From the NCBI GenBank assembly GCA_963823335.1, contig CAWGLD010000001.1, positions 224,001 through 288,000 of the forward strand: 64,000 bases of DNA, written 5' to 3'. Each line of letters opens with the position of its first letter. Position 1 is the stretch's first letter. The notes beneath the pieces are model-generated. The model was not told the origin of the DNA. It saw only the letters and a list, made by a program, of their open reading frames with translations, and searched no databases. The DNA comes from an uncultured delta proteobacterium (GTDB lineage Bacteria > Desulfobacterota > Desulfobacteria > Desulfobacterales > B30-G6). The position numbers and the translations under genes were made by a program. Of this stretch, positions 8,736-55,761 are shown one piece after another.

Positions 8736-8874
8736 AAATTATTACCAAATAAATTTCACGCCCCCGATGGGTTCATTGACAAGGCATTCAGGGGCGCAGC
8801 CGTAGTATACTACTGCAAGTTCCTGATAACGCAGTCAATGAGCCCATCGGGGAGCGCTCGAAGAGTGATAATTT
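8736..8874 (+). repeat. Long hairpin element with AAGGC/AACGCA internal loop (copy E)
   Basis: CCCCGATGGGTTCATTGAC pairs with GTCAATGAGCCCATCGGGG. Confidence 0.7.
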
Positions 8875-8893
8875 TTTTAAAATTATCATGAAA

Positions 8894-10174
8894 TTAGTCG
8901 TCAAAGTCCCCGGCAGGTCCCTTATCACTGTCGATCTCGGCCGCCTTTTGAACGATTTTTTTCGGTGTCCACTCATCCGGGTTCTCGATCCGTTCCGCCT
9001 TGGGGCCGGGATCGTAGGTTCCGACGGACAGTATTTTCTGGATAGCGATATCGGCCGTTTCGGTTGCGTTAAATACCTTCACCAGCATGTTGTATACAAA
9101 ATCTTCCACACGTTTGACCATTCTGTCACGAATCGCCATGGGTTGACCCAGTAACTTGTTTTCAAAAGGCAGATTGAGTTTCTTATAATCCCCGCCTTTC
9201 AAGCCCTTGGATGTTGCGTAGGCCACCATCGCCGCCCACATTTCTTCGGTGGCGCCCTGATCCTTGACCTTGATAAAACTGCCGTCCTCACTCAAAATGG
9301 CATTTCCGAAATCGTTTACCTCCAGCCCCCATGAAATCATCTGCAGGGCCGTAGCGACATTGGCTTTCGTTGTTCGGGTATTGGCGGCGATCTCTCTGAG
9401 GCGGTCTGAACTGTTTCCCGAGGTGCCATGCTGTGCACCCGACACCTTATAGGGTGCCAGGGCATCGTGAATCTGACGCGTCAACTCCACCTGGATGCCC
9501 TGCCCACTGGCTTCGATACCATGTGTCGTGCCGTTGTTCAGCGCTATCCAGTCCGCAAAGATATCGTGTGCATTGAGACCCCTGATGAGAAAACTGGCTT
9601 CTGCAACGGTTGACAACCCTTCCTTGCCCTTGATTTCTCCCACCTCTGTTTCTAGGCCGGCCCAGGCGGGAATGAAGGGATTCAACTGCAGATTGGCCAA
9701 GAGATTCTGGTCATCCGGCATGTGAGAGGCATCGACGGCGATGGAGGTCATGCCCGCTTCAAACAGGGTGGGTATCTCAACCTTGGCCACGTCAATGTCT
9801 GATTCCTTTTTGATACCGTAATGATCGGCATGGATGGCCACCGGAATACGGATGTCCAGTTCGTTGCAGATGGCGTCCACCTGTCTGGCAATATTCCAAT
9901 AGTTGACTGCACAATAGGCATCGGCACCGCCCTCTGAACGGGCTATCTCAATGATAATACATGCATTGGCCCGTTGCGCCGCCTGCAGGGCACCCCGGAT
10001 AACGAAACTGTTTCTGCCATTGGCCGCCATGGCGATTGCCTGTCCTTTTTTGGCCATAGCCCTGTCGATAAATTTTCCACTAACAATCAATGCCCGGGAG
10101 TTCGGGAATAATCGGGTCACGTTGGGAGGGCGACCGATTTGAATTGCCTTTTCGAAATCTGATGAAGAAACCAT
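8894..10174 (-). CDS. fba: Class II fructose-bisphosphate aldolase (long deltaproteobacterial type)
   Basis: HADH, DASH, ETEVG, NGTTHG, QHGTSG, KANVAT motifs. Confidence 0.85.
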   Translation of the reverse strand: MVSSSDFEKAIQIGRPPNVTRLFPNSRALIVSGKFIDRAMAKKGQAIAMAANGRNSFVIRGALQAAQRANACIIIEIARSEGGADAYCAVNYWNIARQVDAICNELDIRIPVAIHADHYGIKKESDIDVAKVEIPTLFEAGMTSIAVDASHMPDDQNLLANLQLNPFIPAWAGLETEVGEIKGKEGLSTVAEASFLIRGLNAHDIFADWIALNNGTTHGIEASGQGIQVELTRQIHDALAPYKVSGAQHGTSGNSSDRLREIAANTRTTKANVATALQMISWGLEVNDFGNAILSEDGSFIKVKDQGATEEMWAAMVAYATSKGLKGGDYKKLNLPFENKLLGQPMAIRDRMVKRVEDFVYNMLVKVFNATETADIAIQKILSVGTYDPGPKAERIENPDEWTPKKIVQKAAEIDSDKGPAGDFDD

Positions 10175-10309
10175 GGATGAACCTCCTTTTTGCCGGTGGC
10201 ATCCCGCACAATGTTGCAGGAGCGAATGTCTTTATTATGATATGTTCTTTTTTAACAAGCGATGGGAACGTCTCAACAAGATAGCTTATAACAGACTTCT
10301 CATTCGTCA

Positions 10310-10390
10310 GTCAACTACCACCCCTAAAACGGGTGGCTTGGATTTCCCCCAAAATGGGGGAAATCCAAAGGAGACGGCATGCCTCCGTAA
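10310..10390 (+). mobile_element. Degenerate IS200/IS605 (IscB/HEARO-type) end remnant
   Basis: GTCAACTACCACCCCTAAAACGGGTGGCTTG, then a 13-bp hairpin and AAGGAGACGGCATGCCTCC. Confidence 0.5.
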
Positions 10391-10570
10391 GTTCAGGTTC
10401 GGAACCGCGTCCCAAGCACGCGGTTTGTAGAACAATCAACCTTTTAACGAACATGTCGACAAGAAAACCCGCTTGTTTTGCAACACAGGTCGGCTGTTTG
10501 TATTGGGTTTACAGGGTGATCATTGTCTGTTAATAAATTGAGATCATTTCCAAAAGAGTTGATTAAAATG

Positions 10571-10810
10571 AAGGGTTCAAGGATTCGAGGGGTCAAGGGT
10601 TCGAGTGGAATGTTTAGATATTATAAAGAGTTAAACGATAGGGAAGATTGTATAAACTTTGTTTGAATATATATAAGGACTTCAAGAATTAAGAGAAAAG
10701 ATCGGGAATATAGAGAAAAGACTGAAAGCGATGATCAAATCCCTGGGAAACAGACACTTGAACCCTTGAATCCTGGACTCCTTGAACCCTTTCTCCCAAC
10801 TGGGAGAAAA
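10571..10810 (+). pseudogene. Internally deleted four-helix-bundle (23S rRNA IVP-like) gene remnant inside 8-mer inverted repeats
   Basis: MFRYYKEL..(frameshift)YKLCLNIYK and ELREKIGNIEKRLKAMIKSLGNRHLNP*, flanked by AAGGGTTCAAGGATTCGAGG... / ...CCTTGAACCCTT. Confidence 0.6.
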
Positions 10811-10875
10811 TTACATTGTATCTTAAGAATGCACGAAAATTACCAACATTGAACAATTAATGGTATAATACGTTC

Positions 10876-12954
10876 ATGAAAATTCAACGCGTCCTCTTAC
10901 TCATTGCGTCAGTGGTTCTTCTCTGGTCATGTGCCCCTAGGCAACCATTGCCGCCATTGCTCGAACCGACAGCGCCCCCTGAACTTGAAGCCATCGACTA
11001 TGGAAACTTGTTTCTGGAAGCCCAATCCTTGTATGCTGTGCAGTGGTTTGAAGAAGCCCTGCTAAAATATGATTTCTATATTCAACATCAACCCGATGGT
11101 GTCCATGCAGATACCGCACTCAAACAGATGGGTGATATTCACTTTCTGCTAGGTGCTTTTGACTCTGCCAGAAATGCCTACAGGACCCTCCTCGAGAGAC
11201 ACCCGCAAAGCCCCCTGGTGCCGGATGTGAGGCTCGCCATGCTGGAAACATATGCCCGGGAAGGAAAATATGAAGAGCTTATCCGCTATTCGTTTGAAAT
11301 TCCGGACAGCCTGCTCACCCCGGCGCAGCTCCTGAGAAAGGAAACCATGACGGGGGACGCCTATCTGGCCACGGATTCACCGGTGGACGCTTTTTACTTT
11401 TACAGCCTGGTATATGATCAATCCCCTCTCCTGTTAAAGGACCAGACCCTTGAAAAGCTGAAAGAGGTTCTGCCACACCTCAACACCATCAACACCATCT
11501 ATCTGCTGGACCGCTTGAAAGACGGCGTGTTGCGGGGACACCTGCTTTATCATTTGGGATTGCTCAACCTCGAGACCGGCAGAACCGACGATGCCATTGC
11601 AACCCTTTCAGAACTCGTGAACCGCCACCCGGTGCACGAGCAGGCCGGGAAAGCCAGACTACTGATCCTGGAGATCTTTACGGAATCGATTTCAAGTCCC
11701 CATTCCATCGGTTGCCTACTACCCCTCAGCGGTCCCTACAAGACCTACGGTGAAAAAGCCCTGCAGGGCATTGAACTCGCCCTGAACGAATACCATCGCA
11801 CCCACAAGGAAAAACCGATCCATTTCATCGTCAAAGATACAGCATCGGACCCCTTTCAGGCTGTTCAGGCGGTAAGAGAACTCGATGAAGCCAATGTTTC
11901 CGCAATCATCGGTCCCATCTTCTCGGCCGAGCCGGCTGCCATGGAAGCGCAGAGCAGGGGAATTCCCATTATTCTTTTCACCCAAAAGGACGATATCACA
12001 CGGATTGGTGAGTTTGTTTTCAGGAATTTTATAACACCCCGGATGCAGATCGAGCCCTTGGCTGCATATGCGGTAAAACGTATGGGCCTCAAGCGATTTG
12101 CCATCCTCTACCCGGATGAAAACTATGGCAACACATACATGAATCTCTTCTGGGATGAAGTGCTTTCCCTGGGCGGGGCTGTTGTCGGTGTTGAATCGTA
12201 TGACCCTATGGATACGGACTTTGCCAAGCCCATCAAAAAACTGGTGGGTCTTTATTATGAGGTGCCAAAGGAACTCGAGATTGACTTCACGTTTACTCCC
12301 GAAGATGAAGTGAACCAGGATCCAATGGCAAAAACAACCACCAACATGTTGGCCTTCCTACCCCATGAGATAAAGAAAATACCGCAACTCTATTTCTGGG
12401 GATTTCCACAAGCACTGGGTCCGCTGGCGAACGATGTCGCTCAGGGTAGAAAACGGGATGACGCGCTTGAACCCATCGTCGATTTCGATGCCCTGTTCAT
12501 ACCGGATGCGGCCAAAAAGTCAGGCCTGATTACCCCCCAGCTGGCCTATTTTGATGTCGAAGACGTGGTATTGATGGGGACCAATCTGTGGCACTCCCAA
12601 CAACTGATCGACATGTCACAGGACTACATCCAGAAAGCCGTCTTGACGGATGGCTTTTTTCCCGAGAGCAAGAACCCCAGGGTCAGGGTTTTCTTGAAAT
12701 ATTTTCAGGACACCTTTGACGAAAATCCGGGATTCATCGAGGCTGTTGCTTATGATTCCGCCAAGATCCTCCTGCAGACACTTGTCAACCCGGGCATCCG
12801 TTTCAAGAGTCATCTCAAAGACGAGTTGCTGAACCTGATTGATTTTCCCGGCGTGACCGGATCGACATCCTTCGATTACAAGGGGGATGCCATCAGGGGC
12901 CCTTATATCCTGCGGGTCAAAGGGCGTTCGTTCGAGTCCCTGCAGAATCCCTGA
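10876..12954 (+). CDS. Lipoprotein, TPR plus LppC/LpoA-like periplasmic-binding fold (penicillin-binding protein activator-like)
   Basis: Lipobox LLWS-C, TPR-like helices, IGCLLPLSG, IIGP, AYD...GVTG. Confidence 0.75.
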   Translation: MKIQRVLLLIASVVLLWSCAPRQPLPPLLEPTAPPELEAIDYGNLFLEAQSLYAVQWFEEALLKYDFYIQHQPDGVHADTALKQMGDIHFLLGAFDSARNAYRTLLERHPQSPLVPDVRLAMLETYAREGKYEELIRYSFEIPDSLLTPAQLLRKETMTGDAYLATDSPVDAFYFYSLVYDQSPLLLKDQTLEKLKEVLPHLNTINTIYLLDRLKDGVLRGHLLYHLGLLNLETGRTDDAIATLSELVNRHPVHEQAGKARLLILEIFTESISSPHSIGCLLPLSGPYKTYGEKALQGIELALNEYHRTHKEKPIHFIVKDTASDPFQAVQAVRELDEANVSAIIGPIFSAEPAAMEAQSRGIPIILFTQKDDITRIGEFVFRNFITPRMQIEPLAAYAVKRMGLKRFAILYPDENYGNTYMNLFWDEVLSLGGAVVGVESYDPMDTDFAKPIKKLVGLYYEVPKELEIDFTFTPEDEVNQDPMAKTTTNMLAFLPHEIKKIPQLYFWGFPQALGPLANDVAQGRKRDDALEPIVDFDALFIPDAAKKSGLITPQLAYFDVEDVVLMGTNLWHSQQLIDMSQDYIQKAVLTDGFFPESKNPRVRVFLKYFQDTFDENPGFIEAVAYDSAKILLQTLVNPGIRFKSHLKDELLNLIDFPGVTGSTSFDYKGDAIRGPYILRVKGRSFESLQNP

Positions 12955-13048
12955 AAACAGTCAGGAAATTAGAGGCCATCTCAAAAAAAAAGGGTTTTGG
13001 TTGAAGATCAAGATACCCTATTTTACCTCATAAAGGAGCGAAATAAAC

Positions 13049-14728
13049 ATGAGCAACACCCCCGATAAAATAATTTACTCCATGATCAGGGTCAGCAAGT
13101 ATTATGACAAAAAGGCGGTATTGAAGGATATTTCCCTGTCATACTTCCATGGCGCCAAGATCGGTGTTCTGGGCCTCAATGGCGCTGGAAAGTCATCCCT
13201 GCTGCGAATCCTGGCCGGCGAGGATAAGGAATTCAACGGTGAAACCATCCTCTCCAAGGGCTTCACGGTGGGCTACCTGGAGCAGGAACCACTGGTGAAC
13301 ATCGATAAAAGCGTACGTGAGGTCGTAGAAGAGGGCGTTCAGGAGACGGTTGATCTGCTCAGGGAATTTGAAGAGATCAACAACAGTTTTGCCGAGCCCA
13401 TGGATGACGCGGCCATGGAAAAACTCATTGAACGCCAGGGGCAGGTTCAGGAAAAGCTGGATGCCCACGATGCCTGGGAGCTCGATTCCCGGCTGGAAAT
13501 GGCCATGGATGCCCTGCGCTGCCCCCCGGGGGAAGTCCGGATCAACGTGCTGTCGGGGGGTGAAAAACGGCGTGTGGCCCTTTGTCGTCTTTTGCTGCAG
13601 AAACCCGACATCCTGTTGTTGGACGAACCCACCAACCATCTGGATGCGGAAAGTGTGGCCTGGCTGGAACACCACCTGCAGCAATATTCCGGGACGGTCA
13701 TCGCCGTCACCCACGATCGTTACTTTCTGGACAATGTGGCCGGCTGGATCCTCGAACTGGACAGGGGTCAGGGCATTCCCTGGAAAGGCAACTACTCGTC
13801 ATGGCTGGAACAAAAAATGGAGCGTCTGCGTCGGGAGGAAAAAGCCCAGAGCGCCCGTCAGAAAACACTGGCCCGGGAGTTGGAGTGGATCCGCCTGACC
13901 CCCAAAGGACGCCATGCAAAGAACCAGTCCCGGGTCAATGCCTATGAAAAGCTGATGGCCCAGGAAGAGCAAACCCAGGACAAAGAGCTGGAGCTGTATA
14001 TCCCGCCTGGCCCGCGCCTGGGTGACGTGGTTATCGAGGCGGATGGTGTGACCAAGGCCTATGACGATCATCTGCTCGTGGAAAAGATGTGTTTCCAACT
14101 GCCCCCGGGCGCCATCGTGGGCGTCATCGGGCCCAATGGCGCCGGTAAAACCACCCTGTTCAGAATGATCACCGGCCAGGAAAAAGCCGACAGCGGACTT
14201 TTCAAAATCGGTGAAACCGTTCAGCTGGCATACGTGGACCAGAACCGCGAGCTGGACCCCAAAAAAAGTGTCTGGGAAGAGATTACCGGGGGACAGGAAC
14301 TGCTCGAAATCGGCGAAAGAACCATCAACTCCCGTGCCTATGTGGCCCGCTTCAACTTGTCCGGTTCGGAACAGCAACGCAAGGTGGCGGATCTCTCCGG
14401 AGGACAGCGCAACAGGGTTCATCTGGCCAAGATGCTCAAGGAAGGGGCCAACGTCCTGCTGCTGGATGAACCCACCAACGACCTGGATGTCAACACCCTG
14501 AGAGCCCTGGAGGAAGCGCTGGAAAACTTCGGCGGCTGTGCGGTGGTGATCAGCCACGACCGCTGGTTTTTGGATCGCATCACCACCCATATCCTGGCCT
14601 TCGAGGGAGACAGCCAGGTTGTTTTTTTCAACGGCAACTGGACAGAATACGAGGCTGACCGCAAGAAACGCCTGGGTGTCGATGCTGAAATACCGCGACG
14701 AATCCGGTATCGCCAGTTGACGCGCTGA
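13049..14728 (+). CDS. ettA: Energy-dependent translational throttle ABC-F protein EttA
   Basis: Two ABC domains ([16 protein letters not shown]), LSGGE/LSGGQ, DEPTN, ELEWIR linker. Confidence 0.95.
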
Positions 14729-14743
14729 TCTTGGTATGGACAC

Positions 14744-14886
14744 TATAACCTATCTCAAAATAAAGATCGGAGTTCATGGCAAGGCGTAACACAGCGAAAA
14801 AGCGGAGCATACACGTAGTATGTGAGCATTTTGAGATGTTTTGCAACACCGCCATGGGCACTTAGATTATTTTGAGATGGGTTCTA
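14744..14886 (+). mobile_element. MITE-like long hairpin element (copy A)
   Basis: Terminal IRs TATAACCTATCTCAAAATAA / TTATTTTGAGATGGGTTCTA; internal AAGGC...AACACC. Confidence 0.75.
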
Positions 14887-15828
14887 GCTTGCAACCCAGA
14901 CAGCGACATTGTACGTCGAAGAAATCAGCTTGTCACTGACCCTGCCGTGAAGCATTTTCTCCATAAACCCGACAGCTTCCCGGCGGCCTACGACGATGGT
15001 CCCGTAATTGCCCGCCAGGGCCGTGTCGACGATTTTCTGTATGGCACTGCCATGGTGCAGCAGGAAATTAACGGAAATATTCTTTTCCTTCATACCGGCT
15101 TTCACAAGGCGTTGAACAGCCTCGATCATATATGGTTGGAAACGGTTTTGATTATATTTAACTACAGACTCCTCGGTTATCGAATCACTTGTCTCACAAT
15201 CAGATATGGGCGACAGGTTCTGGAGGTTGAACACGTGACAAAGAGAGACTTCCAGCTCCCGGGCATGGGATAGATCGCCAATGCAGGTGGTGGCCCTCAT
15301 AGCCTCGATGGATTCATCCAGGGCAATCAGTATTTTGCTGGATGCTGGTTTGCCGCCAACAACAATGATGGGAATATGCCTGATCTTTTCAATCAGTTTG
15401 AAAGCCATGCTTCCCACTACGATATCTTTCAGCCGACTGACACCGGTTCGCCCCACAACCAGGGCGTGGTAGTTCTGATACGATTCCTGAACGATATCCT
15501 TGAGCAGGTTGGTTTTTTTTGTCTGCGTTTTTACGCTGACGGCATCTTTCGGAAACCCGGCATCGGCAAGAATCTTGAACGCTTTTTCTTTGAACTCGCC
15601 GATGACCAGCTGGCTGTCAGCCAGCCATTTTTCCAGCGGTTCCTTTTTTGACTGATAAAGAGGATTGTTATTCATGGCCCAATAAACGTCCGGAAATCCC
15701 GTTCCAACGCTGAGCAGTACAACTTCCGTCTGGTCCGGAGGAACAATCATGCTGATATAACGAACCGCTTCCAGGGCTTGATCCGAGCCGTCGATGGCGA
15801 TCAATATCTTTCTTCGAATGACTGCCAA
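14884..15828 (-). CDS. Tandem universal stress protein
   Basis: Two USP repeats: KILIAIDGS...VVGRTG...VGS and KILIALDES...VVGRR...GRVS. Confidence 0.85.
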   Translation of the reverse strand: MAVIRRKILIAIDGSDQALEAVRYISMIVPPDQTEVVLLSVGTGFPDVYWAMNNNPLYQSKKEPLEKWLADSQLVIGEFKEKAFKILADAGFPKDAVSVKTQTKKTNLLKDIVQESYQNYHALVVGRTGVSRLKDIVVGSMAFKLIEKIRHIPIIVVGGKPASSKILIALDESIEAMRATTCIGDLSHARELEVSLCHVFNLQNLSPISDCETSDSITEESVVKYNQNRFQPYMIEAVQRLVKAGMKEKNISVNFLLHHGSAIQKIVDTALAGNYGTIVVGRREAVGFMEKMLHGRVSDKLISSTYNVAVWVAS

Positions 15829-16038
15829 ATTGCCTCCTGATTTCAGTGATATGGATTTATTATTTTGACACGATCAGTTATGACCTTTGGATCTTCTCCC
15901 AATAAGTTGGGAGAAAGGGTTCAATCCTTGAATCCTTAATTTGGATCCACTCTTTGGGAGATGATCCATATTTTATCATGTTTGAAGTGTTTCGTCACAT
16001 CAGAATTCTGATCTGCCATGAATTGCCGCCAAGATAGT

Positions 16039-16950: not shown

Positions 16951-17029
16951 TGACCCTCCAAATTTTCCCCTGCACTGCTCTGGCGGGGAGTACCCGTCCT
17001 AAATATCCGGTTCACGGGACCAGATCCCT

Positions 17030-17725: not shown

Positions 17726-17728
17726 GGC

Positions 17729-22348: not shown

Positions 22349-22449
22349 TGAGTCCTCCTGTTGTGTTTTGGGTAGTCAATTGCACTTAAATCGAGCAATT
22401 ACTGCATTTTTAATAAGGTTATCGTTCTATTTTCATGAAATGTTCAAAA

Positions 22450-22611
22450 TAACCCGGGTATTTCACGAACCTGATCGGTTTTGGCGCAAGGCATTTTAGC
22501 CTGAAGTCGTAGTCAATTACTGCGAAGGCTGAATAACACAGTGCCAGGGCCGATCAGGAAAGCCCGAAGGGTGAAACTTGACTTGTCAAGTTTCATGAAA
22601 TGTTCGGGCTA
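22450..22611 (+). mobile_element. MITE-like long hairpin element (copy F)
   Basis: Terminal IRs TAACCCGGGTATTTCACGAA / TTCATGAAATGTTCGGGCTA; internal AAGGC...AACACA. Confidence 0.7.
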
Positions 22612-22782: not shown

Positions 22783-22908
22783 TGTTTCCTCCCTTGATAA
22801 AATCGTTACCCGATTTTATGATACACGACACCGTCGCTCATCTGGTGAGCGGCTTCCCCTTTGTTCTTGCCGGTGAGACCGCCCTTGGCAAATGCGAACG
22901 TGCCTATA

Positions 22909-23265: not shown

Positions 23266-23378
23266 GGTATTGTCTCCATAAAATCGCATGGCGATTTTAT
23301 CAATGGCGGCTATGCCGCCTGATTTATTAAATAACAGATCCTTGCATGGTCGTTGATCCTATCAATAGTATCGTCAAA

Positions 23379-30345: not shown

Positions 30346-30665
30346 GATCGCTCCCTCACTGATTTTCTTTCCTTATTTTTTAAAAGGATCAACTCTCTTC
30401 ACTATTCGCACAATTAAATCTTCGCTTGTCATTAGCACTTCGTGCGTCATTTGTCCTTCGGACGACATTAGCGCTGCGCGCGTTATTTATTGTCGCTGAA
30501 AGCTGGTAGCTACACGAAGTAAATATCTATTAATTACGCGAAGCAAATTACATTTATTCCCTCGGAACCTTGTATGCAGGGAAGCTTGGATGCTCTGAAG
30601 CCGGAATACTGCTGTTCGCTACCCTTGTATCACCCTCCGACTCTCGAACCCTCGGACCCTTACTA

Positions 30666-34128: not shown

Positions 34129-34214
34129 CTGTCACCACCATTTCTCTGCTAATCGCTTTAAAAAAGACGCTGTCGCGTTTAATAAAATCGTTACATGCTT
34201 TTATTTTCCTGAAC

Positions 34215-35756: not shown

Positions 35757-35901
35757 TAGACTCTATCTCAACATAAAGATTTTGGCTCAATATCAAGGCG
35801 GGGCAGAATTTCAACCCGCAGACATACTCAAGTATGTCGAGGACTTGAAACGAGGGCTCAACACCGAGATTGGGCCAAAAGATTATGTTGAGATGATTCT
35901 A
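35757..35901 (+). mobile_element. MITE-like long hairpin element (copy B)
   Basis: TAGACTCTATCTCAACATAA / TTATGTTGAGATGATTCTA; AAGGC...AACACC. Confidence 0.78.
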
Positions 35902-37359: not shown

Positions 37360-37584
37360 ATACGCCTCCCATCATTTCGTTGGATATGTTCACACTTTCG
37401 TCCACAAGAACACGGATGGTGTAATTTTTTTGTATCGCATTTACTTGAATTACTTTCTATCCTTGAAGCTGTCAGCCCCCTTCCAATCCTTGTATCACCC
37501 TCGGACCCTCAAACCCTTTTATTTTATATGTCGTAACACAGACCAAACCCTTACATGCAAATGTATTTAGAAGCTATTTATGGA

Positions 37585-38387: not shown

Positions 38388-38602
38388 GAGATATTCCCTG
38401 ATGGCTTCATTTAAACGATGTAATTGCAGGGCAAGTATTACATGACAGACGCTTTAAACTGTGAGCCAATAGCCATAAGCTGTAAGCGCTAAGCTTTTAA
38501 AAACAAACAGCATAAGGCGGTCTGCACACCCTCGAATCCTTGACTCCTTGGCCCCTCGAACCCCTATTAGTCTTTTAGGGGCCTATCGCTGTCAGCCACC
38601 CC

Positions 38603-38671
38603 CCAACCCTTGTATCACCCTCGAACCCTTGTATCACCCTCCAACCCTTGTATCACCCTCCAACCCTTGTA
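38603..38671. repeat. 19-nt tandem repeat, about 3.6 copies
   Basis: C(C/G)AACCCTTGTATCACCCT units; related single copies near 30622, 37485 and 57437 (reverse). Confidence 0.85.
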
Positions 38672-38684
38672 CCCTATTTATAAA

Positions 38685-40556: not shown

Positions 40557-40741
40557 GATATCAGCTCCTAAAGAGTGTGATTACGCTAAGTCCCCACAAT
40601 ATTGTTGCATTATTTAAAATAATATTTAAAATTAAGTAATGAATAAAATCGTTATACGATTTTATTTGAACGCGACGTTGTCGCTTTAACATTGTTTTTC
40701 CCCGAGCAACGGGAAAAAACAATGATAACGGAGGTTCTGGT

Positions 40742-43717: not shown

Positions 43718-43846
43718 CGCGAACCTGGCATAAGAGAAGTTTTCATCAGCTGAACAGGCACACTGCAGGGGGATTGGGGAAGATACCTCGAAGAAGCCGA
43801 ATATCGATTATCCAACAAGAAACCGCACAAGCATGGAGACCTTGAA

Positions 43847-44962: not shown

Positions 44963-44977
44963 ATTTGCGATGCAACT

Positions 44978-47418: not shown

Positions 47419-47428
47419 GGTTATTGCC

Positions 47429-47878
47429 TTACAACATGCTCCGTAATTGCCGTTCGATCTCGGGTTTGGCGTAGGTCCCGGCCAGGGTATGCAGAACCCG
47501 GCCGTTTTTAAAAAAGAGCAGCGTCGGCACACTCAGCACATGGTACCGGGCCGCCGTCATGGGGTTTTGATCGATATTGAGTTTGGCCACCTTGACATGC
47601 CCGGAAAATTCCCTGGCGAGTTGATCAATTATCGGCGCAATCATTCGACAGGGCCCGCACCATGCCGCCCAGCAGTCCAGAAGCACCACCCCCGGATATG
47701 CCAGAACGTCTTCCTGAAACGACCGGTCCGTCACCATCACCGGGTGTTGAATCGCTGAAGGCGGCGGCAGTTTACTGCGGCACTTCCCGCACACAGGCCC
47801 ATCTTTCACACGACTTTTGGGTATGCGATTCCTGGTTTTACAATTGGTACACTGAATGATGTAACTGTCGGTATCCAT
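47429..47878 (-). CDS. trxC: Thioredoxin 2 (zinc-finger thioredoxin)
   Basis: CTNC..NR..CGKC zinc finger plus WCGPC. Confidence 0.9.
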   Translation of the reverse strand: MDTDSYIIQCTNCKTRNRIPKSRVKDGPVCGKCRSKLPPPSAIQHPVMVTDRSFQEDVLAYPGVVLLDCWAAWCGPCRMIAPIIDQLAREFSGHVKVAKLNIDQNPMTAARYHVLSVPTLLFFKNGRVLHTLAGTYAKPEIERQLRSML

Positions 47879-47883
47879 TGGCC

Positions 47884-49248: not shown

Positions 49249-49341
49249 GTATTTCAATCCGTTTCATCCGAGGTACCCATGGCCGGAGGATGAATGCCCC
49301 TATAGTAAATTTATTTGTCCATTACTTTCCAAGATGTCCAG

Positions 49342-49938
49342 CTATCCAGATCTGCCATCGTCACAGGCATCGTCTTCCCCTTCCCCCCTGGCATGCTCGG
49401 CCGTAAAACTGGAGGTGCACGCATCGATGCTGGCTGCATTTTTCAGTGCCTTCAGTGCTTTTTCGTAATTTGGCTCTGTTGCCACCTCACTGACAAGCTC
49501 CGAATAAATGATCTTGCCGGATTCGTCCAGCACCACGACGGCCCTGGCCAGCAAGCCGGCCAAGGGTCCATCCATGATGACGACACCATATTTTTCTCCG
49601 AAATCCCGGTGACGCATCTCTGACAAAGCAATGGCGTTTTCGATACCTTCCGCTTCACAAAACCGGTTATGTGCAAAGGGCAAATCTCTTGAAATACACA
49701 AAACAACCGCATTTTCATGCTGGCTGATTTCTGTGTTGAACCGACGAACAGAAGCCGAGCAAGTGGGCGTATCGATACTGGGGAAAATGTTCAGTACAAC
49801 CCGCTTTCCAGCCACATCCCTCAGGGACATGTCGGACAAGTCTCTTTTGGTCAGTGAAAAATCGGGTGCGGCATACCCTGGAGACGGTAAGTTTCCTGAT
49901 GTATGGATTGAATTTCCTTTGAGTGTAATCTGGGCCAT
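49342..49938 (-). CDS. tpx: Thiol peroxidase Tpx with C-terminal extension
   Basis: FPSIDTPTC, SRDLPFA..RFC, LLARAV. Confidence 0.92.
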   Translation of the reverse strand: MAQITLKGNSIHTSGNLPSPGYAAPDFSLTKRDLSDMSLRDVAGKRVVLNIFPSIDTPTCSASVRRFNTEISQHENAVVLCISRDLPFAHNRFCEAEGIENAIALSEMRHRDFGEKYGVVIMDGPLAGLLARAVVVLDESGKIIYSELVSEVATEPNYEKALKALKNAASIDACTSSFTAEHARGEGEDDACDDGRSG

Positions 49939-50007
49939 GGTTTCCTCCTTATGTCAAAATCCGGTTTGTGTGACGATGTAATTTGTCAATCTTCTCTAAT
50001 AAATGGA

Positions 50008-50023
50008 TACAATAAACATGCCA
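50008..50023 (-). promoter_or_regulatory. Sigma-54-like promoter for tpx
   Basis: Minus strand TGGCATGTTTATTGTA. Confidence 0.45.
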
Positions 50024-50166
50024 GAACCCCGTGAGTTTCACAAGTCCAATACCCGTTCCTCAGATTTATTAAAAGAGAATGACGTTTGCATACAGGTGGT
50101 ATGATTGTTGCTTTCCGGATTATGAGGTATTATGTTTATATCATCAAATACAAAGGAGGGTTAATG

Positions 50167-50379
50167 ATGACCGATCACAACAAACGCTATCACATCAACT
50201 CCGCCTGTCCCCAGTGCGGATGCAGTTTCGCCCAGGTATTGAACGGCGAAGAACTGAAAAAAAAATATGGGGATATGCCGAATGTGGAACTTGAATGTGG
50301 CGAGTGCATGATTAAATTCCAGGAGGAAACGAAAAAGGCCTGCCCGGAATGGGATAAGGACTGTAGGTTAGAGGAATAG
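50167..50379 (+). CDS. Small Cys-rich hypothetical protein
   Basis: GGAGG RBS; CPQCGC, CGEC, CPEWDKDC. Confidence 0.7.
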   Translation: MTDHNKRYHINSACPQCGCSFAQVLNGEELKKKYGDMPNVELECGECMIKFQEETKKACPEWDKDCRLEE

Positions 50380-50414
50380 ACAAACAACTTCATCCATTAA
50401 AGAAAGGTTAGCCC

Positions 50415-50894
50415 ATGGTGTATGACTTCAATGCAGATGAAATTCTTCAAATGGCAGAACAGCTCGAAAGAAATGGAGCTGAATTTTATAGAAAATCAAC
50501 CGAGAGAGTCCAGGACCCGGCCGGCAAGAAACTGTTGATGAACCTGGCCGAAATGGAGGATCAACACGAAAAAACCTTTGCTGCGTTGAGATCAAAACTG
50601 ACGGCGGATGAAAAAGCCCAGACAGTTTTTGATCCTCAAGGCGAGACCGTGGGTTATCTAAAGGCCCTGGCGGATTCAAAAGTTTTTTTTGATAAAACCA
50701 TCGATACAGACAGCATGGAAGGCATTTTGAAAGAAGCCATCACCACTGAAAAGGATTCCATCCTGTTCTATCTGGGCATCAAGGATGTGGTGCCGGAAGC
50801 CCTCGGCAAGAGCAGAATCGATCAGGTTATCAAGGAAGAAATGTCCCATATCAATCTGCTGACCAGAGAGCTGGTGGCCCTCAAGAAAGGGTAA
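50415..50894 (+). CDS. Rubrerythrin/ferritin-like protein
   Basis: ERNG..FY, MEDQH, EKDS..FY, EEMSH. Confidence 0.87.
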   Translation: MVYDFNADEILQMAEQLERNGAEFYRKSTERVQDPAGKKLLMNLAEMEDQHEKTFAALRSKLTADEKAQTVFDPQGETVGYLKALADSKVFFDKTIDTDSMEGILKEAITTEKDSILFYLGIKDVVPEALGKSRIDQVIKEEMSHINLLTRELVALKKG

Positions 50895-51296
50895 CATTCG
50901 GATAGAACCGGCTTTCGTGAACGGATACGGTCAAAAATGAGACCACCGTCAGGTTCAGAACAACATACCAGAAAGGCAGATCCTCCTCGAGACCCAACCA
51001 GGACGGGATGTGTCTCTTGATGGGCAAGTGATACACTATTGTCTCGCTTTATAAATGAGACAATAGTGCCGTTATCGGATATAGCGTCCACAATAGCACA
51101 GAAACCTGATGGCACAGACGTCGTATCGACAACTTGCGGTTTTTTAAGCCGTGCTTATGGTGTGAGCAATTGGATATATTGATGATAGCCTGACACCCGA
51201 CAAAGACCAAGTCTGTTGTACGTTCGACCTAACAGACTTTTCCGTAAGGTTCAGGGTGCAAAACCAGATTAAATATTAGAGGTACAGGAGGCGGAC

Positions 51297-52127
51297 ATGT
51301 GGGAATACACGGACAAGGTAAAAGAACATTTCATCAACCCTCGAAATGTCGGTTTCATCGATAACCCTGATGGCCTTGGTGAAGTCGGTTCACTTGCCTG
51401 CGGAGATGCCCTGAAACTGACCTTCAAACTAGGGCACGATAAAAAAATCAGTGACGCAAAATTTCAAACATTTGGCTGTGCCAGCGCCATCGCCTCATCT
51501 TCCGCTCTTACGGAAATGATTAAAGGGTTGACCCTGGAGGAAGCTGCAGACATCACCAATGACGACATCGCCCATTATCTGGGGGGACTTCCCAAGGAAA
51601 AAATGCATTGTTCCGTTATGGGCCGTGATGCCCTGGAAAAAGCCATCGCCTATTACGAGGGTGCGTCGATTGAAAAAAAAGAAGGTGAAATCGTTTGTGA
51701 ATGCTTTGGAATCACCGACATCGAAATCAGAAGGGCTGTCCAGGAAAACGGTCTCAAAACGGTTGAAGACGTAACAGACTACGTAAAAGCCGGTGGTGGG
51801 TGCGGCAACTGCCACGACCGGATCGGAGAAATCATATCCGAGGTTCGGGGAAAACCTGTTCTGGTTAAGCCCGTACCCAGAGCTTTGACCAATGTTCAGA
51901 AAATCAAAATGATTGAAGAAACCCTGGACAGGGAAATCAAACCAGCCTTGAAAAAAGATGGTGGTGATATCGAACTTGTCGATTTTGATCACAATACTGT
52001 TTTTGTGAGATTACGCGGCACCTGTTCCACATGTGCTGCATCACAGGTCACCCTGAAAAGCTATGTTGAAACCAAGCTCAAAGAGCTGGTATCTCCTGAT
52101 TTGGTGGTAAGTGAGGTGCTGCAATGA
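51297..52127 (+). CDS. nifU: Fe-S scaffold NifU (three-domain)
   Basis: CGD, FGC, KMHC; CEC..GGCG.C; C-terminal GTCSTC. Confidence 0.95.
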   Translation: MWEYTDKVKEHFINPRNVGFIDNPDGLGEVGSLACGDALKLTFKLGHDKKISDAKFQTFGCASAIASSSALTEMIKGLTLEEAADITNDDIAHYLGGLPKEKMHCSVMGRDALEKAIAYYEGASIEKKEGEIVCECFGITDIEIRRAVQENGLKTVEDVTDYVKAGGGCGNCHDRIGEIISEVRGKPVLVKPVPRALTNVQKIKMIEETLDREIKPALKKDGGDIELVDFDHNTVFVRLRGTCSTCAASQVTLKSYVETKLKELVSPDLVVSEVLQ

Positions 52128-53326
52128 ATATCATTTACGTAGACAACAATGCCACCACCAAGGTTGATCCAGCGGTTGTGGAAGCCATGATGCCTTTTTA
52201 CACCGAATATTATGGGAACCCTTCCAGTATGCATGCCTTTGGCGGAAACGTGGCCAGATCGGTCAGCAAAGCCCGGGAACAGGTGGCCTCCCTCATCAAT
52301 GCCACCCCCGAGGAAATAATTTTCACCAGTTGTGGCACCGAAAGTGATTCCACGGCCATCTGGGCCACGATTTCATCCATCCCGGACAAAAAGCACATCA
52401 TCACGTCACGGGTCGAACACCCTGCTGTTAAAAATCTGTATGAACACCTGGCCAAAAAAGGCTATAAAGTCACATTTGTACCGGTTGATCGCCAGGGCAT
52501 TCTGGATCTTGATTTTCTGTACGATCACCTCACGGAAGACACAGCGCTGGTCAGTATCATGTGGGCCAACAATGAAACCGGTGTGATATTTCCCATCGAT
52601 GAGATAGCACGGGCAGCCAAGGACAGGGGTATCGTTCTGCACACCGACGCAGTCCAGGCCGTGGGCAAGGTTCCCGTGGATGTTCAAAAAACCAGTGTCG
52701 ACCTGCTGTCGCTTTCCGGGCACAAAATCCACGCACCCAAAGGAGTGGGCGCACTCTATGTGAGAAAAGGAACCAGGTTTACCCCCTTCCTCATCGGCGG
52801 TCATCAGGAAAAAGGACGCCGCGGCGGCACTGAAAATGTCGCCACCATCGTCGGCCTCGGGAAAGCCAGTATGCTGGCCAAAGATCTTCCGAAAAATACA
52901 ATGATGGAAGTCGGACGTCTGAGGGACAGGCTCGAACAGGGTCTGGTCAGCCGCGTTCAAAATGCCATGGTCAACGGTGACACAACATCACGACTTCCGA
53001 ATACCACCAATATCAGTTTCGAATATATCGAAGGGGAGTCCATCCTCCTGATGATGAACGAACTGAACATCTGTGCATCCTCTGGATCCGCGTGTACGTC
53101 GGGATCTCTGGAGCCGTCTCATGTTCTGAGGGCCATGGGTATCCCTTTTACGGCCGCTCACGGTTCCATACGTTTCAGTCTGAGCCATTACAACACCGAG
53201 GAAGAGATGGATTTTATCATCGAAAAAATGCCGCCCATCATCGACCGGCTGCGGCAGATGTCTCCTTTCTGGAACCAGGGGAAACCTGCCGAAACCATGC
53301 TGACCGGAGCGGAATGCCCATTGTAA
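52124..53326 (+). CDS. nifS: Cysteine desulfurase NifS
   Basis: DNNATT, SGHK, SSGSACTS. Confidence 0.95.
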   Translation: MNIIYVDNNATTKVDPAVVEAMMPFYTEYYGNPSSMHAFGGNVARSVSKAREQVASLINATPEEIIFTSCGTESDSTAIWATISSIPDKKHIITSRVEHPAVKNLYEHLAKKGYKVTFVPVDRQGILDLDFLYDHLTEDTALVSIMWANNETGVIFPIDEIARAAKDRGIVLHTDAVQAVGKVPVDVQKTSVDLLSLSGHKIHAPKGVGALYVRKGTRFTPFLIGGHQEKGRRGGTENVATIVGLGKASMLAKDLPKNTMMEVGRLRDRLEQGLVSRVQNAMVNGDTTSRLPNTTNISFEYIEGESILLMMNELNICASSGSACTSGSLEPSHVLRAMGIPFTAAHGSIRFSLSHYNTEEEMDFIIEKMPPIIDRLRQMSPFWNQGKPAETMLTGAECPL

Positions 53327-53338
53327 GGAAGCATCCCC

Positions 53339-54310
53339 ATGTCGACGGAAAAACATGCCACAAGTCATGCCGGTTGTAAGATCGATGCCCAGTCATTATC
53401 GTATTACCGTGGCAGACTGCCGGAGGTTGCTGAGAAAATCATCGCCAAATGCGGGGACGATGAATGCTACAACCATATCAACTATGAGCCCATTCCGTCA
53501 AAAACGTCCGTTGTCGATATCATTCACCGATTGCGGGAAATCCTGTTTCCGGGTTACTTTACCAGAGAAAAATTAGACCCGGTAAACCTGACCTACAGCA
53601 TGGGCCAGACCGTTTCTATTCTTTTCGATCAGCTTTCAGAACAGATCTGCCACAGCATCCGGCATGACTGCTTCCGTTATGACCAGGAATGCAGCGAATG
53701 TGCTGAAAAAGGTAATGAAGTCTCCCTGGCGTTTCTGGAATCAATCCCGGAATTGCGGGAAATTCTCTCTACAGATGTTGCCGCAGCTTATGCGGGCGAT
53801 CCTGCGGCCAAAAGTTTCGATGAAATAATCTTCAGTTATCCGGGTGTATTTGCCCTGATGGTTTACAGAGTCGCGCACAAACTCCATACAATGGCTGTAC
53901 CGCTGCTGCCCCGTATTATGACCGAATATGCGCACAGTATTACCGGAATCGACATCCATCCGGGTGCCGAAATCGGCCGGGGTTTTGTCATCGACCATGG
54001 GACAGGTGTGGTCATCGGTGAAACCAGTATCATCGGCAACAATGTCCGGATCTACCAGGGGGTCACTCTGGGGGCCTTGTCCCTGCCCATGGATGCCGGG
54101 GATCGGCTGCGCGGAATCAAGCGTCACCCCACCATTGAAAACGATGTTATCATTTATTCCGGGGCGACCATTCTTGGTGGAGAAACCGTTATCGGAGCAA
54201 GATCGGTAATCGGCGGAAATGTATGGCTGACCGATTCTGTTCCCCCAGACACCAAGGTGATCATGAAAAAGCCTGAGTTGATCTACATGCCCTCCAATAA
54301 CGTGGAATAG
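53339..54310 (+). CDS. cysE: Serine O-acetyltransferase
   Basis: [30 protein letters not shown]. Confidence 0.9.
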
Positions 54311-54375
54311 TCACCCGCCGCTGCCAACATATAATACCAACTGCCGCCAAGCACCCATCACCAAAGGAGGCCAGC

Positions 54376-55296
54376 ATGAACATATTTCCTGGAATTCAAA
54401 ACACCATCGGCGCAACCCCCATGGTTCGGATAAGAAACATGACCGGCAAGTTTGACTGTGATATTCTTGCCAAACTCGAGTTTTTCAACCCGCTGGGGAG
54501 CGTCAAAGACAGGATTGCCGCAGCCATGATCGACACGGCTGAACGTGAAGGGCTCATTGGGTCCGAAACCCTTATCGTTGAACCCACCAGTGGGAATACC
54601 GGCATCGCTCTGGCATTTATCTGTGCGGCAAAAGGCTATCGGATCTGCCTTACCATGCCGGAAACCATGAGTCTTGAACGCAGGAAACTCTTGAAGCACC
54701 TGGGGGCTGAACTCGTTCTGACGCCAGGCCCCGCTGGGATGAAAGGGGCCATTCAAAAAGCCACCGAGATACTGTCCCAGACCAAAAATGCCTTCATGCC
54801 GAACCAGTTCAAGAATCCAGCCAATCCGGCAATACACAAAGAAACCACCGCCAAGGAAATATGGGACGATACAGCAGGAAGTGTGGATATTTTCGTTTCC
54901 GGCGTTGGAACCGGTGGCACCATCACCGGTGTTGCCGAAATGATCAAGCAGAAGAAACCCTCGTTCAAGGCCGTTGCGGTTGAGCCTGCTGATTCACCGA
55001 TTCTTTCCGGTGGGAAACCCGGGCCCCACAAGATACAAGGCATCGGGGCCGGATTCATCCCCGATGTTCTAAACACCTCTATTATCGACGAAATCATCAC
55101 CGTCACCAATGACGAAGCCTTTGAAACAGCCCGGAAACTTGCCAGGAAGGAAGGCATCCTGTGTGGGATATCGTCCGGAGCCGCCATGGCGGCAGCACTG
55201 AAACTGGCGCAAAGAAAAGAAACCAAAGGCAAACGGATCGTCGTGCTGCTGCCTAGTACGGGGGAGCGTTATATCAGTACCGCTCTTTTTCAGTAG
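54376..55296 (+). CDS. cysK: Cysteine synthase A
   Basis: [32 protein letters not shown]. Confidence 0.95.
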
Positions 55297-55439
55297 AAGC
55301 TATCTCAAAAAAGTTTTTTGACCCAATTTCTGTGTTGGGCCCTTGCTTCAACTCCTCGGAATACTTCAGCATGCCTGCGGGTTGAAGTTCGGACCCGCCT
55401 TGAACTTGAGCCAAAACCCTTTTTTTGAGATGGCTTCTA
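55294..55439 (-). mobile_element. MITE-like long hairpin element (copy C)
   Basis: TAGAAGCTATCTCAAAAAA / TTTTTTGAGATGGCTTCTA; reverse-oriented relative of copy B. Confidence 0.78.
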
Positions 55440-55590
55440 AATATAATCGTGTAACATTTTTATTGAGACAGGAGTGTATCATAAAGCCTGAGGATACACA
55501 TGATACGGGCAGGGAAATGCAATCATATTTCTTGGCCCTTTAGAATTCGCGCAAAACTCTCTTTGGTATGCGTAAACATCGCCACAATAC

Positions 55591-55761
55591 TAGAAGCCAT
55601 CTCAAAAATAGGAGTTTGGTTTCCCGCAAAAAGAGCGGGATCTTCATCAAAGTCAAGGCGGAATCAAGATTTAACCCACAGGAATACTGATGTATTTTGT
55701 GGAGTTGAAACGGGAGCCCAACGCAGGATTTGGGCAAAAGATATTTATGGGATAGCTTCTA
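55591..55761 (+). mobile_element. MITE-like long hairpin element (copy D)
   Basis: TAGAAGCCATCTCAAAAATA / TATTTATGGGATAGCTTCTA; AAGGC...AACGCA. Confidence 0.75.

Follow-up and report, generated by a model that had tools for sequence, protein, structure and literature searches.

A gene-less family of miniature elements in a Desulfobacterales genome with a conserved folded centre and exchanged helices and ends

Introduction

The 64,000-nucleotide stretch of DNA analysed here (the window) contains six hairpins whose helices differ in sequence from copy to copy and still pair. This raises the question of what the hairpins are and what their fold is kept for. As described below, they are copies of a very abundant gene-less family of miniature inverted-repeat elements (MITEs), in which a conserved folded centre is found with exchanged helices and ends. 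In the usual view a MITE consists of two ends that bind transposase, separated by filler; in this family that filler is conserved better than any other part.

Six copies and two lone ends in the window

All six copies were recovered at the positions given by the original prediction, and each shows the proposed plan, stem1-AAGGC-stem2-GNAG-apical hairpin-YGAR-stem2'-AACRC-stem1'. All are long hairpins (MFE from -45 to -66.5 kcal/mol, z from -4.1 to -9.1, with folding ranges slightly trimmed for two copies to 22461-22583 and 55591-55740), and for none of the six was any of 200 shuffles equally stable.

Copies 4, 5 and 6 are type A MITEs. Copy 4 (35757-35901, + strand) is 145 nt long, has a TA flank and contains a long core at 35780-35880. 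Copy 5 (55294-55439, 146 nt, core 55316-55416) has the - strand as its top strand and belongs to the young main subfamily; its terminal TAG is the stop codon of an ORF at 54376-55296. Copy 6 (55591-55761, + strand, 171 nt, core 55640-55740) has, nested in its left arm at about 55620-55646, an inserted hairpin of about 26 nt. Copy 2 (14744-14886, + strand, core 14772-14859) is a type B element, and its terminal inverted repeats, TATAACCTATCTCAAAA and TTTTGAGATGGGTTCTA, are a variant of those of type A. Contig 4 has another copy of this kind, 98.6% identical, and relatives with the exact type A end were found in other genomes, including a Hyphomicrobiales MAG.

The remaining two copies, both on the + strand, have the short core (type C). 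In copy 1 (8736-8874; MFE -66.5 kcal/mol, z -9.1) the core, helix P1 included, occupies 8762-8852 and is surrounded by an outer helix, tttcac/gtgata, and by a small hairpin on the 3' side. Copy 3 (22450-22611) has its core at 22470-22558; a small palindrome at 22571-22596, 3' of the core, is separate from it. The copy and this palindrome are together enclosed by direct repeats of 15 nt (22431-22445 and 22591-22605).

The lone ends reported near 3258 and 12970 were both present on the + strand. The first (3258-3276) is a terminal repeat of type A (TAGAAGCCATCTCAAAT..) that has no partner in its vicinity. The second (12970-13012) is the left end of a type A element whose remainder is missing; it consists of the terminal repeat and about 25 nt of arm, with 86% identity over 43 nt. 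No further copies were found in the window among covariance-model matches to the long core or among short-core places.

Size and ends of the superfamily

The 4.4-Mb genome contains about 120 MITEs of this superfamily, counted as 94 covariance-model matches to the long core, 21 short-core places and two type B copies. The elements are 102-247 nt long and contain no gene: the top strand has one open frame of 48 codons and no start-to-stop gene. The ends of type A elements measure 17 nt, and most of the 62 paired copies have TA at either side. Types D, E and F are likewise TA-flanked; the borders of type C are not cleanly resolved. The original prediction had counted three unrelated types of terminal inverted repeat, which was wrong. 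The ends of copy 2 are a variant of the ..CCYATCTCAAAA end of copies 4-6, and genome-wide at least seven shells (types of ends), several of them TA-flanked, surround the same rod-shaped core. This core was found in 113 of 151 genomes of the order and in 38 of 151 in the phylum sample.

Fold and covariation of the centre

The centre is a rod-like hairpin of 85-100 nt with two internal loops of conserved sequence and a small apical hairpin. AAGGC lies opposite AACRC in one loop and GNAG opposite YGAR in the other; these sequences were invariant in this genome and at 70 places in other genomes of the phylum. The rod also has an optional, hypervariable helix, which the short form (copies 1 and 3) lacks.

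In the long cores (26 sequences, alignment A2) 23 of the 33 pairs show changes on both sides, and 95.8% of cells were paired as compared with 78.2% in shuffles and 27-49% in slid registers. In the short cores (14 sequences including copy 1, alignment A4) 23 of the 27 pairs were compensatory, and pairing reached 93.3% versus 70.1% in shuffles. None of 500 shuffles was as high for the long cores or as good for the short ones, although these controls overstate significance because all counts come from related sequences. The covariation anticipated in the original prediction was thus seen in both forms. Pairing and compensatory change above all shuffles and slid registers, together with the genome-wide copy numbers, exclude chance.

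Strand specificity and selection

The mismatches are strongly asymmetric: G.U cells outnumbered A.C cells by 109 to 11 in A2 (about 10 to 1) and by 37 to 9 in A4. The top strand was the more stable in 72 of 80, 17 of 19 and 65 of 70 copies (three copy sets), and the covariance model gave 105 bits for the top strand of one copy versus 33 bits for its reverse strand.

The young 146-nt subfamily (22 copies) was used to compare private and inherited changes. Mutations per column were equally frequent in stems (0.64) and loops (0.63). Seven of nine distinct C>T changes, which keep a G.U pair, were common to several copies, as against one of 13 distinct G>A changes, which break the pair (Fisher p 0.0015; the contrast comprises 22 distinct transitions of one subfamily, a second one of 10 copies being too small to repeat it). 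Variants inherited by several copies therefore retain top-strand pairs, and private variants disrupt them. We read this as a fold that works in cis and on one strand, either as DNA or as RNA. As the one-strand selection is visible in lineages that multiply, the centre is read as a cis-acting module for the element's own propagation. The earlier claim that selection acts on a single-stranded fold, and not only on transposase-binding ends, agrees with these data: helices covary, loops are invariant and pairing is strand-specific.

Mobility and the link to IS5-family insertion sequences

An 841-bp insertion sequence in the same genome (contig 1:1149510-1150350) has TA flanks and ends near-identical to those of type A. 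It begins with TA|CAACCCATCTCAAAAAAAA and finishes with the complement of that sequence and TA; its two ORFs match DUF4096 and DDE_Tnp_1, and NF033580 (IS5 family). An 834-bp element of a Truepera MAG, in which a DUF4096 ORF comes first, is bordered by the exact type A end. The type A ends and their 2-nt TA duplication are the same as those of IS5-family insertion sequences (NF033580, IS5_3 type). Because the ends are IS5-family ends, these data show that an IS5-family DDE transposase moves the commonest shell, type A (copies 4, 5 and 6, with copy 2 as a variant). The autonomous partner that had been expected was thus found for type A, but none was found in this genome for shells C to G. Among sampled genomes of the order no co-occurrence of core and transposase was seen: the core was carried by 30 of the 41 genomes that have an IS5_3 match and by 82 of the 109 that have none, in a sample of mostly draft MAGs, where IS copies often fail to assemble. 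Origin of the interior by internal deletion of the insertion sequence was rejected, as the transposase gene or its 3' end follows the IS ends directly, with no AAGGC..AACRC centre.

The comparison of related genomes revealed differences in presence and absence between species of one genus, as the original prediction had envisaged. Both loci of copies 5 and 6 were empty in the two alignable same-genus genomes; the copy 3 locus was filled in one of three and empty in two; and at the copy 4 locus one such genome contains only a 32-nt ends-only remnant. Given these differences, the flanking TA and the IS5-family ends of the main shell, the elements are ordinary MITEs as regards mobility. The filled copy 3 locus provides the sole orthologous pair. 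It has three stem differences, all of them U/C opposite G, and 94% identity versus 84% over the whole 957-nt match, which hints at constraint on resident copies too.

In RNA-library contigs from four runs the element was joined to many different flanks; these contigs carry no strand information, and DNA carry-over is possible.

Proposed role of the folded centre

On balance, we favour the explanation that this is a superfamily of trans-mobilised MITEs whose one-strand folded centre is a cis-acting propagation module. On this view the elements, which have no gene, end in inverted repeats of about 17 nt and duplicate a TA at the target, are moved in trans, and their helices are free to vary provided that pairing holds, both loops being fixed in sequence. 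During transposition the top strand, as DNA, would snap back and put the two ends side by side, the element being shorter than the persistence length of duplex DNA; the folded centre would offer the transposase, or a host factor, its conserved loops.

The centre may act as DNA in this manner; it is somewhat less likely that the same fold acts as RNA. We know of no single-stranded intermediate of IS5-family transposases, and resident copies show no bias with respect to the replication strand (54 versus 59 by GC skew), unlike IS200/IS605-type elements, which counts against snap-back of DNA. A more doubtful proposal is that the rod serves as a recognition module whose single-stranded fold is read by some factor. 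If that reading is a step shared by several IS5-type transposases on snapped-back DNA, a DDE transposon family would have an unrecognised single-strand stage, and end-joining by elements below the DNA bending length would be explained. If instead the reader is a host RNA-binding protein or nuclease, the superfamily would be among the most abundant undescribed structured RNAs of Desulfobacterota. The hypervariable helix would be a lineage tag whether the strand is DNA or RNA.

Alternative explanations

It is unlikely that the fold acts as RNA for host or neighbouring genes, with read-through transcripts forming a rod that signals processing, stabilisation or termination or works as a small RNA, so that the elements would be domesticated RNAs travelling as MITEs. 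G.U pairing and internal loops rich in purines are typical features of RNA, the sole orthologous pair retains all pairs, and regions between convergent genes hold more than their share of insertions (32 of 102 intergenic copies versus 572 of 3698 intergenic regions). A precedent from the Bacillus cereus group is bcr1, a MITE-like repeat that is transcribed and shows compensatory changes, as outlined in PMC3184786. The RNA-library contigs with their many flanks point the same way, although they lack strand information and may contain carried-over DNA. Against this, there is no sense bias relative to neighbouring genes: tandem contexts gave 20 sense and 33 antisense copies (p 0.10), and with unbiased orientation one transcribed copy in two would expose the strand that folds less well. 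A search of 55100-55900 for sigma-70-like promoters and intrinsic terminators yielded none, copies are gained or lost between species of one genus, and private mutations fall equally in stems and loops.

The centre could alternatively be a small mobile unit that invades the middles of other palindromic elements, the seven shells being seven unrelated MITEs. Nested modules do occur: two kinds of hairpin insert, about 26 nt each, lie at fixed places in 13 and 16 copies, across subfamilies that differ in the hypervariable helix, and type A and type E ends are found with wholly unrelated interiors in other phyla. However, the centre lies exactly in the middle of every shell, and its helix P1 continues without interruption as the helix of the shell. 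Neither a shell-less centre nor a target duplication at the centre borders was found, and ends-only remnants resemble deletions of the centre, not empty sites, making such invasion very improbable. Since the same centre lies within at least seven sets of ends, we infer that the centre was retained as lineages repeatedly swapped their ends and, with the ends, probably their transposase.

Least probable of all, and hardly credible, is a fold without function, its palindrome arms kept alike by arm-to-arm correction (snap-back or cruciform heteroduplex repair) or its subfamilies born as fresh inverted duplications: long inverted repeats are prone to such events, ends do change on both arms together and central deletions of the palindrome were observed, but the asymmetric loops still differ between arms at the 70 places in other genomes of the phylum, spreading variants are the pair-keeping ones, and correction of a duplex palindrome would not yield G.T mismatches skewed to one strand (109 versus 11, the top strand being favoured in 72 of 80).

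Comparison with known elements

The original prediction recognised no named family, and none emerged from Rfam: at gathering scores there were no matches in the window, and in E-value mode around copies 1, 5 and 6 the best E was 2.3 or worse, far below gathering scores. No published description of the superfamily was found in the literature. The suggestion of an undescribed structured mobile element or ncRNA holds for its first part, but nothing favours a free-standing ncRNA gene, as no promoter-like site was found in 55100-55900 and orientation to neighbouring genes is unbiased.

In keeping structure while sequence varies, in asymmetric unpaired bases and in having one active strand, the centre resembles attC sites, REP/RAYT and the ends of IS200/IS605 elements and their PATE derivatives. 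Those systems differ in size and motifs and have neither DDE-type terminal inverted repeats nor TA duplication. PATEs lack terminal inverted repeats and duplication, and their insertion is tied to the lagging-strand template, IS200/IS605 elements having a strong replication orientation bias; an IS200/IS605-derived PATE was rejected here on account of inverted ends, TA flanks and the unbiased GC-skew orientation. REP/REPIN sequences are 20-40-nt palindromes with a GTAG or CGTC tag, in inverted pairs, in genomes with a RAYT gene; on inspection their size and ends differ from ours. The attC consensus has pairing R''/R' boxes (RYYYAAC, GTTRRRY) beside gene cassettes. By inspection an integron attC site was rejected as well, the AAC here lying in an unpaired loop with no GTT partner, in dispersed copies and not in cassette arrays.

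Tourist and Stowaway, plant relatives of IS5/PIF-Harbinger and Tc1/mariner, are trans-mobilised, very numerous MITEs with TA or TAA duplications, hairpin potential and internal sequence that tunes transposition. They share trans-mobilisation, high numbers, TA duplication and hairpin formation with the present elements but are eukaryotic, and we know of no report of sequence-fixed internal loops with covarying helices in plant MITEs.

Like the bacterial IS-derived MITEs Correia, Nezha, Chunjie and QMITE, as characterised in the available text of PMC10969869 and PMC3184786, the elements are shorter than about 500 bp and gene-less, have terminal inverted repeats and a short target duplication, and occur as many dispersed copies, mostly between genes, with filled and empty sites; ends common with an autonomous IS were found for type A only. 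Transcripts of those MITEs are predicted to form very stable hairpins, according to the same accounts (PMC10969869, PMC3184786). In contrast to them, one structured centre with fixed loops occurs here in at least seven sets of ends across the phylum, and pairing is strand-specific. Chunjie, a MITE from the same former class with 21-bp ends, 9-bp direct repeats and a length of 178-235 bp in the account in PMC3184786, was rejected as the same family because its ends, repeats and size differ. Another likeness by description is to bcr1, about 155 bp long and MITE-like, with a short duplication and compensatory base-pair changes that maintain its fold (PMC3184786, available text); the principle is therefore not new. 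Unlike the fold described here, which is known from sequence, bcr1 is reported there to be transcribed and structured at the RNA level; it occurs in other organisms, and that account does not describe end swapping for it (PMC3184786).

One fixed-loop fold has thus outlived at least seven changes of ends, and three quarters of the genomes sampled from the order contain it. If it is needed for copying, it would offer a testable handle on the mobilisation of very short elements and on how a transposase parasite switches hosts. The family also fragments Desulfobacterota MAG assemblies and alters gene ends, as where copy 5 supplies a stop codon, and a single covariance model suffices to annotate it.

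Hairpin elements in the window

All six hairpin stretches of the original prediction were found where it had placed them: copies 1 to 4 at 8736-8874, 14744-14886, 22450-22611 and 35757-35901 and copy 6 at 55591-55761, all on the plus strand, and copy 5 at 55294-55439 on the minus strand. Lone ends at 3258-3276 and 12970-13012 were confirmed as well. Folded as single strands, the six stretches form long rods with minimum free energies of -45 to -66.5 kcal/mol and z-scores of -4.1 to -9.1 (the ranges folded for copies 3 and 6 were 22461-22583 and 55591-55740), and none of the 200 dinucleotide-preserving shuffles made for each copy was as stable. Every copy follows one plan: helix, AAGGC, helix, GNAG-like loop, short apical hairpin, YGAR-like loop, helix, AACRC, helix. 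We refer to the rod-like hairpin of 85-100 nt with these loops as the centre, to the arms and terminal repeats around it as the shell, and to the strand carrying AAGGC as the top strand. The six hairpins are a structured miniature inverted-repeat element (MITE), very widespread and, as a MITE, of a kind already known. The unusual feature is a conserved folded centre outliving its ends.

The suggestion that the family had gone undescribed is not contradicted by Rfam: no family matched anywhere in the window at gathering scores, and the E-value mode, applied to two sub-regions around copies 1, 5 and 6, returned chance-level matches only. After comparison by eye with consensus sequences, we set aside readings of the conserved loops as an IHF site, an attC site, a CsrA motif or a bidirectional terminator.

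Shells and centre forms in the genome

The 4.37-Mb assembly consists of 11 contigs, the window being contig 1:224001-288000. Copies 4, 5 and 6 belong to type A, which is 146 nt long, has the ends TAGAAGCCATCTCAAAA and is flanked by TA on both sides. With up to three mismatches this end occurs 199 times in the genome; facing pairs are spaced by 140-149 nt in 35 cases, by 170-179 nt in 17 and by 190-199 nt in three, and 62 paired copies were extracted when up to four mismatches were allowed in the ends. Two nested inserts, each about 26 nt long and each with its own fixed position, account for the longer forms, which contain either or both: one in the left arm (..CCCGCAAAAAGAGCGGGATCTTCG, in copy 6 at 55620-55646) and one after the GCAG loop (..GCCCGCAGGAAATGCCCTTGGGGT). 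These hairpin inserts are confined to the elements described here, always in the same two positions, and were seen in 13 and 16 further genome places. They are found in subfamilies with differing hypervariable helices, and similar small inserts exist in other genomes; this points either to recombination between copies or to a still smaller mobile module.

A profile search with the centre alone located 97 separate places in the genome, and R1, a covariance model of the long centre, gave 94 full-length matches. The two methods, nhmmer and the covariance model, replaced a strict structural descriptor scan that was too stringent (13 raw matches versus four in the reversed genome). More distant matches sit within quite different ends, namely shells D (TA/AAAGTGGTTTCAAAAG), E (TA/GTGCCCATCCACAAAT) and F (TA/GAGACCTTTGAAAAA), all with a TA flank, and G (end GACGGTTTCGTAAAAAG). 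Copy 2 represents type B, a variant of the type A end with two copies in the genome, and copies 1 and 3 represent the short form, type C, which occupies 21 genome places and comprises at least two sub-shells. That more than one terminal type carries the same core is thus correct; the proposed number of three was too low (at least seven shells), and calling them unrelated was wrong, the ends of copy 2 being a variant of those of copies 4-6.

Side-by-side comparison revealed that the short centre is the long centre minus one helix. Both contain, in order, CAAGGC, TTTCARCC, GNAG, the apical hairpin, CGAR, GGYTGAA and YAACRCAG, and in the long centre alone a further, hypervariable helix of about 8-9 pairs follows directly inside the first loop.

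Covariation and strand specificity of the fold

Compensatory pairs were found in alignments of both long and short centres, above the level of 500 shuffles. Among 26 long centres from shells A, D, E and G, with the structure predicted by RNAalifold, 23 of the 33 predicted pairs have changes on both sides; 95.8% of cells are paired versus 78.2% in shuffles, and all five measures exceeded all 500 shuffles. When the partner was slid by 1-3 columns, pairing fell to 27-49%. The 14 short centres behaved similarly, with 23 of 27 pairs compensatory, 93.3% pairing versus 70.1% in shuffles, and 30-45% in slid registers. The shuffle control overstates significance because the sequences are related; safer evidence of covariation comes from the slid registers and from how many different pair types occur. 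Loop residues are invariant in both alignments and were kept in 70 places of other genomes aligned to the model.

An A.C opposition on one strand corresponds to G.U on the opposite strand, and the two can be counted against each other. In the long alignment, G.U accounts for 109 cells in 21 of the 33 pairs versus 11 A.C cells in six pairs; in the short alignment the tally is 37 versus nine. Both strands of every distinct copy were also folded, and the top strand was the more stable in 72 of 80 long centres, 17 of 19 short centres and 65 of the 70 places in other genomes, with mean differences of 5-9 kcal/mol. R1 scored one copy at 105 bits on the top strand and about 33 bits on the reverse. 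These data demonstrate a conserved, covarying fold specific to one strand, and the central argument of the original prediction, selection on a single-stranded fold, stands.

Turnover within the genus

Three genomes of the same genus were used for comparison, and empty sites, the expected mark of mobility, were found for copies 3, 5 and 6 at orthologous loci of some of them. One genome has copy 3 and two lack it, and copies 5 and 6 are absent from the orthologous spacer in both genomes that could be aligned there. The terminal TAG of copy 5 (55294-55296) serves as the stop codon of ORF 54376-55296; in the two genomes without copy 5 the gene stops a few codons later at its own TGA. On the top (minus) strand of copy 5 (55294-55439), one reading frame runs through all 48 codons without a stop. 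Type A insertion adds 144 nt plus TA, and an in-frame insertion need not break a gene.

At the locus orthologous to copy 4 (35757-35901), one same-genus genome has only a 32-nt pair of ends (locus L339, genome G344). In this and another such remnant (L083) few nucleotides or none separate the terminal repeats. The palindromic centre was evidently lost by deletion in some lineages. At the loci of copies 1 and 2 the spacers differ in length, the contig ends at the element or flanks are missing.

Relationship to IS5-family insertion sequences

At contig 1:1149510-1150350 lies an insertion sequence of 841 bp with TA flanks and with ends, TACAACCCATCTCAAAAAAAA, close to those of type A. It contains two overlapping ORFs with matches to DUF4096 and DDE_Tnp_1, and also to NF033580, 'IS5 family transposase', with 109.7 and 133.2 bits. 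A scan of species-representative genomes located the exact type A end at no fewer than 118 loci in many phyla. Three kinds of DNA lie between such ends. Some enclose transposase genes of the IS5 type and some the interiors of unrelated MITEs, and in Desulfobacterota and a few others they enclose the present centre. A Truepera MAG has type A ends 834 bp apart with a DUF4096 ORF at the opening. The AAGGC..AACRC centre was not found in the IS copies themselves and therefore is not left-over IS sequence. Taken with the empty sites, these results show that the elements are mobile and that type A, the main shell, carries IS5-family ends.

For the other shells, two type G ends separated by 1102 bp and, on contig 7, a single type E end were found to enclose ordinary genes and no transposase. 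A wide scan with the type E end returned MITEs and remnants, with no transposase-gene start in the 150-nt inward stretches; one pair of ends lies about 1.6 kb apart on a single contig (L279/L280). The centre is present in 30 of 41 genomes with an IS5_3 transposase match versus 82 of 109 without. IS5_3 transposase presence is no predictor of the centre, which counts against simple dependence, although most of these genomes are drafts and other shells may use other enzymes.

In mobility the present elements are ordinary bacterial MITEs of the kind described in PMC10969869 and PMC3184786. Chunjie of Geobacter uraniireducens, with the 9-bp repeats, 21-bp ends and size given for it in PMC3184786, was rejected as the same family. 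As summarised in PMC3184786, bcr1 of the Bacillus cereus group is, like the present family, a MITE-like repeat whose fold is maintained through compensatory change. No description of the present family was found in the literature searched, with most subscription journals and supplements outside its scope.

Distribution

R1 matched 113 of 151 sampled genomes of the order, the source genome included, and 80 of 110 genera, often with at least 26 matches per genome. Across the phylum 38 of 151 sampled genomes were matched, 35 of them outside the order, and in a Hyphomicrobiales MAG a type B-like element was matched weakly, at 32.9 bits. The MITE superfamily, with its TA duplication, is thereby shown to be spread over a phylum.

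The type E end was present in 84 of 301 genomes of the order; in Gammaproteobacteria MAGs it encloses unrelated interiors. In many phyla the exact ends of types A and E (loci L001-L118 and L201-L322) enclose short interiors that are wholly unrelated, with one family in Bacteroidota and another in Gammaproteobacteria as examples; one transposase 'address' is therefore common to many independent MITE families. Cultured Desulfosarcina strains are represented among the loci of these end scans. The ends resemble public addresses, each belonging to a particular transposase, and Desulfobacterota lineages have joined the centre, as a module, to many of them.

Where selection acts

In a young 146-nt subfamily (22 copies within 7% of the consensus) substitutions per column are 0.64 at paired and 0.63 at unpaired positions, and resident copies therefore decay freely. 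The distinct transitions, 22 in all, comprise nine C>T and 13 G>A events; the numbers are about equal, so mutation is not strand-biased. Seven of the nine C>T events, which leave G.U, are common to at least two copies, as opposed to one of the 13 G>A events, which leave A.C (Fisher p = 0.0015). The 172-nt subfamily (10 copies, few events) has one shared C>T and no shared G>A, with three C>T and four G>A confined to single copies. From these small numbers it appears that a copy whose top-strand pairing is kept can still spawn new copies and that one whose pairing is lost cannot. We infer that the fold acts in cis as a component of propagation and that the ends have been exchanged repeatedly. 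One comparison runs against this: between copy 3 and its ortholog the centre is 94% identical versus 84% over the whole 957-nt match, and the three stem differences are all U/C opposite G, so that some constraint may act on the copy in place.

As a tentative guess, the fold acts as DNA, the top strand snapping back while the element transposes. At about 146 bp the element is too short to loop as a duplex; the snapped-back rod would put both element ends side by side and would expose its fixed loops to the transposase or to a protein of the host.

A somewhat less probable guess is that the same fold acts as RNA. Parts of the region 53300-57300 are matched by 24 metatranscriptome runs, of which four were examined, and depth over copy 5 is 84-471 versus about 2-30 beside it. 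The peak is the sum of many copies: the contigs show the element in many contexts, and their loose ends at 55294 and 55440 are other loci. The contigs carry no strand, ends or level and are no proof of transcription of a given strand. Less likely than propagation through the fold are that the centre is a nested independent hairpin element, and that arm-to-arm correction alone is at work.

An RNA with a role for the host does not fit the placement of the elements: on a gene map of our own rough ORF calls, 53 of 113 lie between tandem genes, 32 between convergent and 17 between divergent genes and 11 inside ORF calls, the tandem contexts being 20 sense versus 33 antisense (p = 0.10), and neither sigma-70-like promoters nor intrinsic terminators were found at 55100-55900, around copies 5 and 6. 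Nor does a replication-coupled single strand fit, orientation relative to local GC skew being 54 to 59.

Neighbouring repeats

Next to copy 3, at 22571-22596, is a separate small palindrome, GTGAAACTTGAC / GTCAAGTTTCAT, with further occurrences on contig 1. Together with copy 3 it is bracketed by a 15-nt direct repeat (22431-22445 and 22591-22605), which is single in the same-genus genomes lacking the element. Another palindrome family, ATAAAATCG..5 nt..CGATTTTAT, is intergenic, with copies at 839-888, 7080-7136, 22787-22836, 23268-23317, 34181-34206, 40633-40667 and 55431-55463; the first four of these seven are followed by a small GC-rich hairpin. Runs of G-rich words (GGGTTGGAGGG, CCCTTGTATCACCCTC and their complements) were seen at 8601-8692, 10571-10791, 30603-30653, 37468-37517, 38588-38675, 57421-57470 and 61959-62056. 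They occur in both orientations, some as inverted pairs, and one run lies directly upstream of copy 1.
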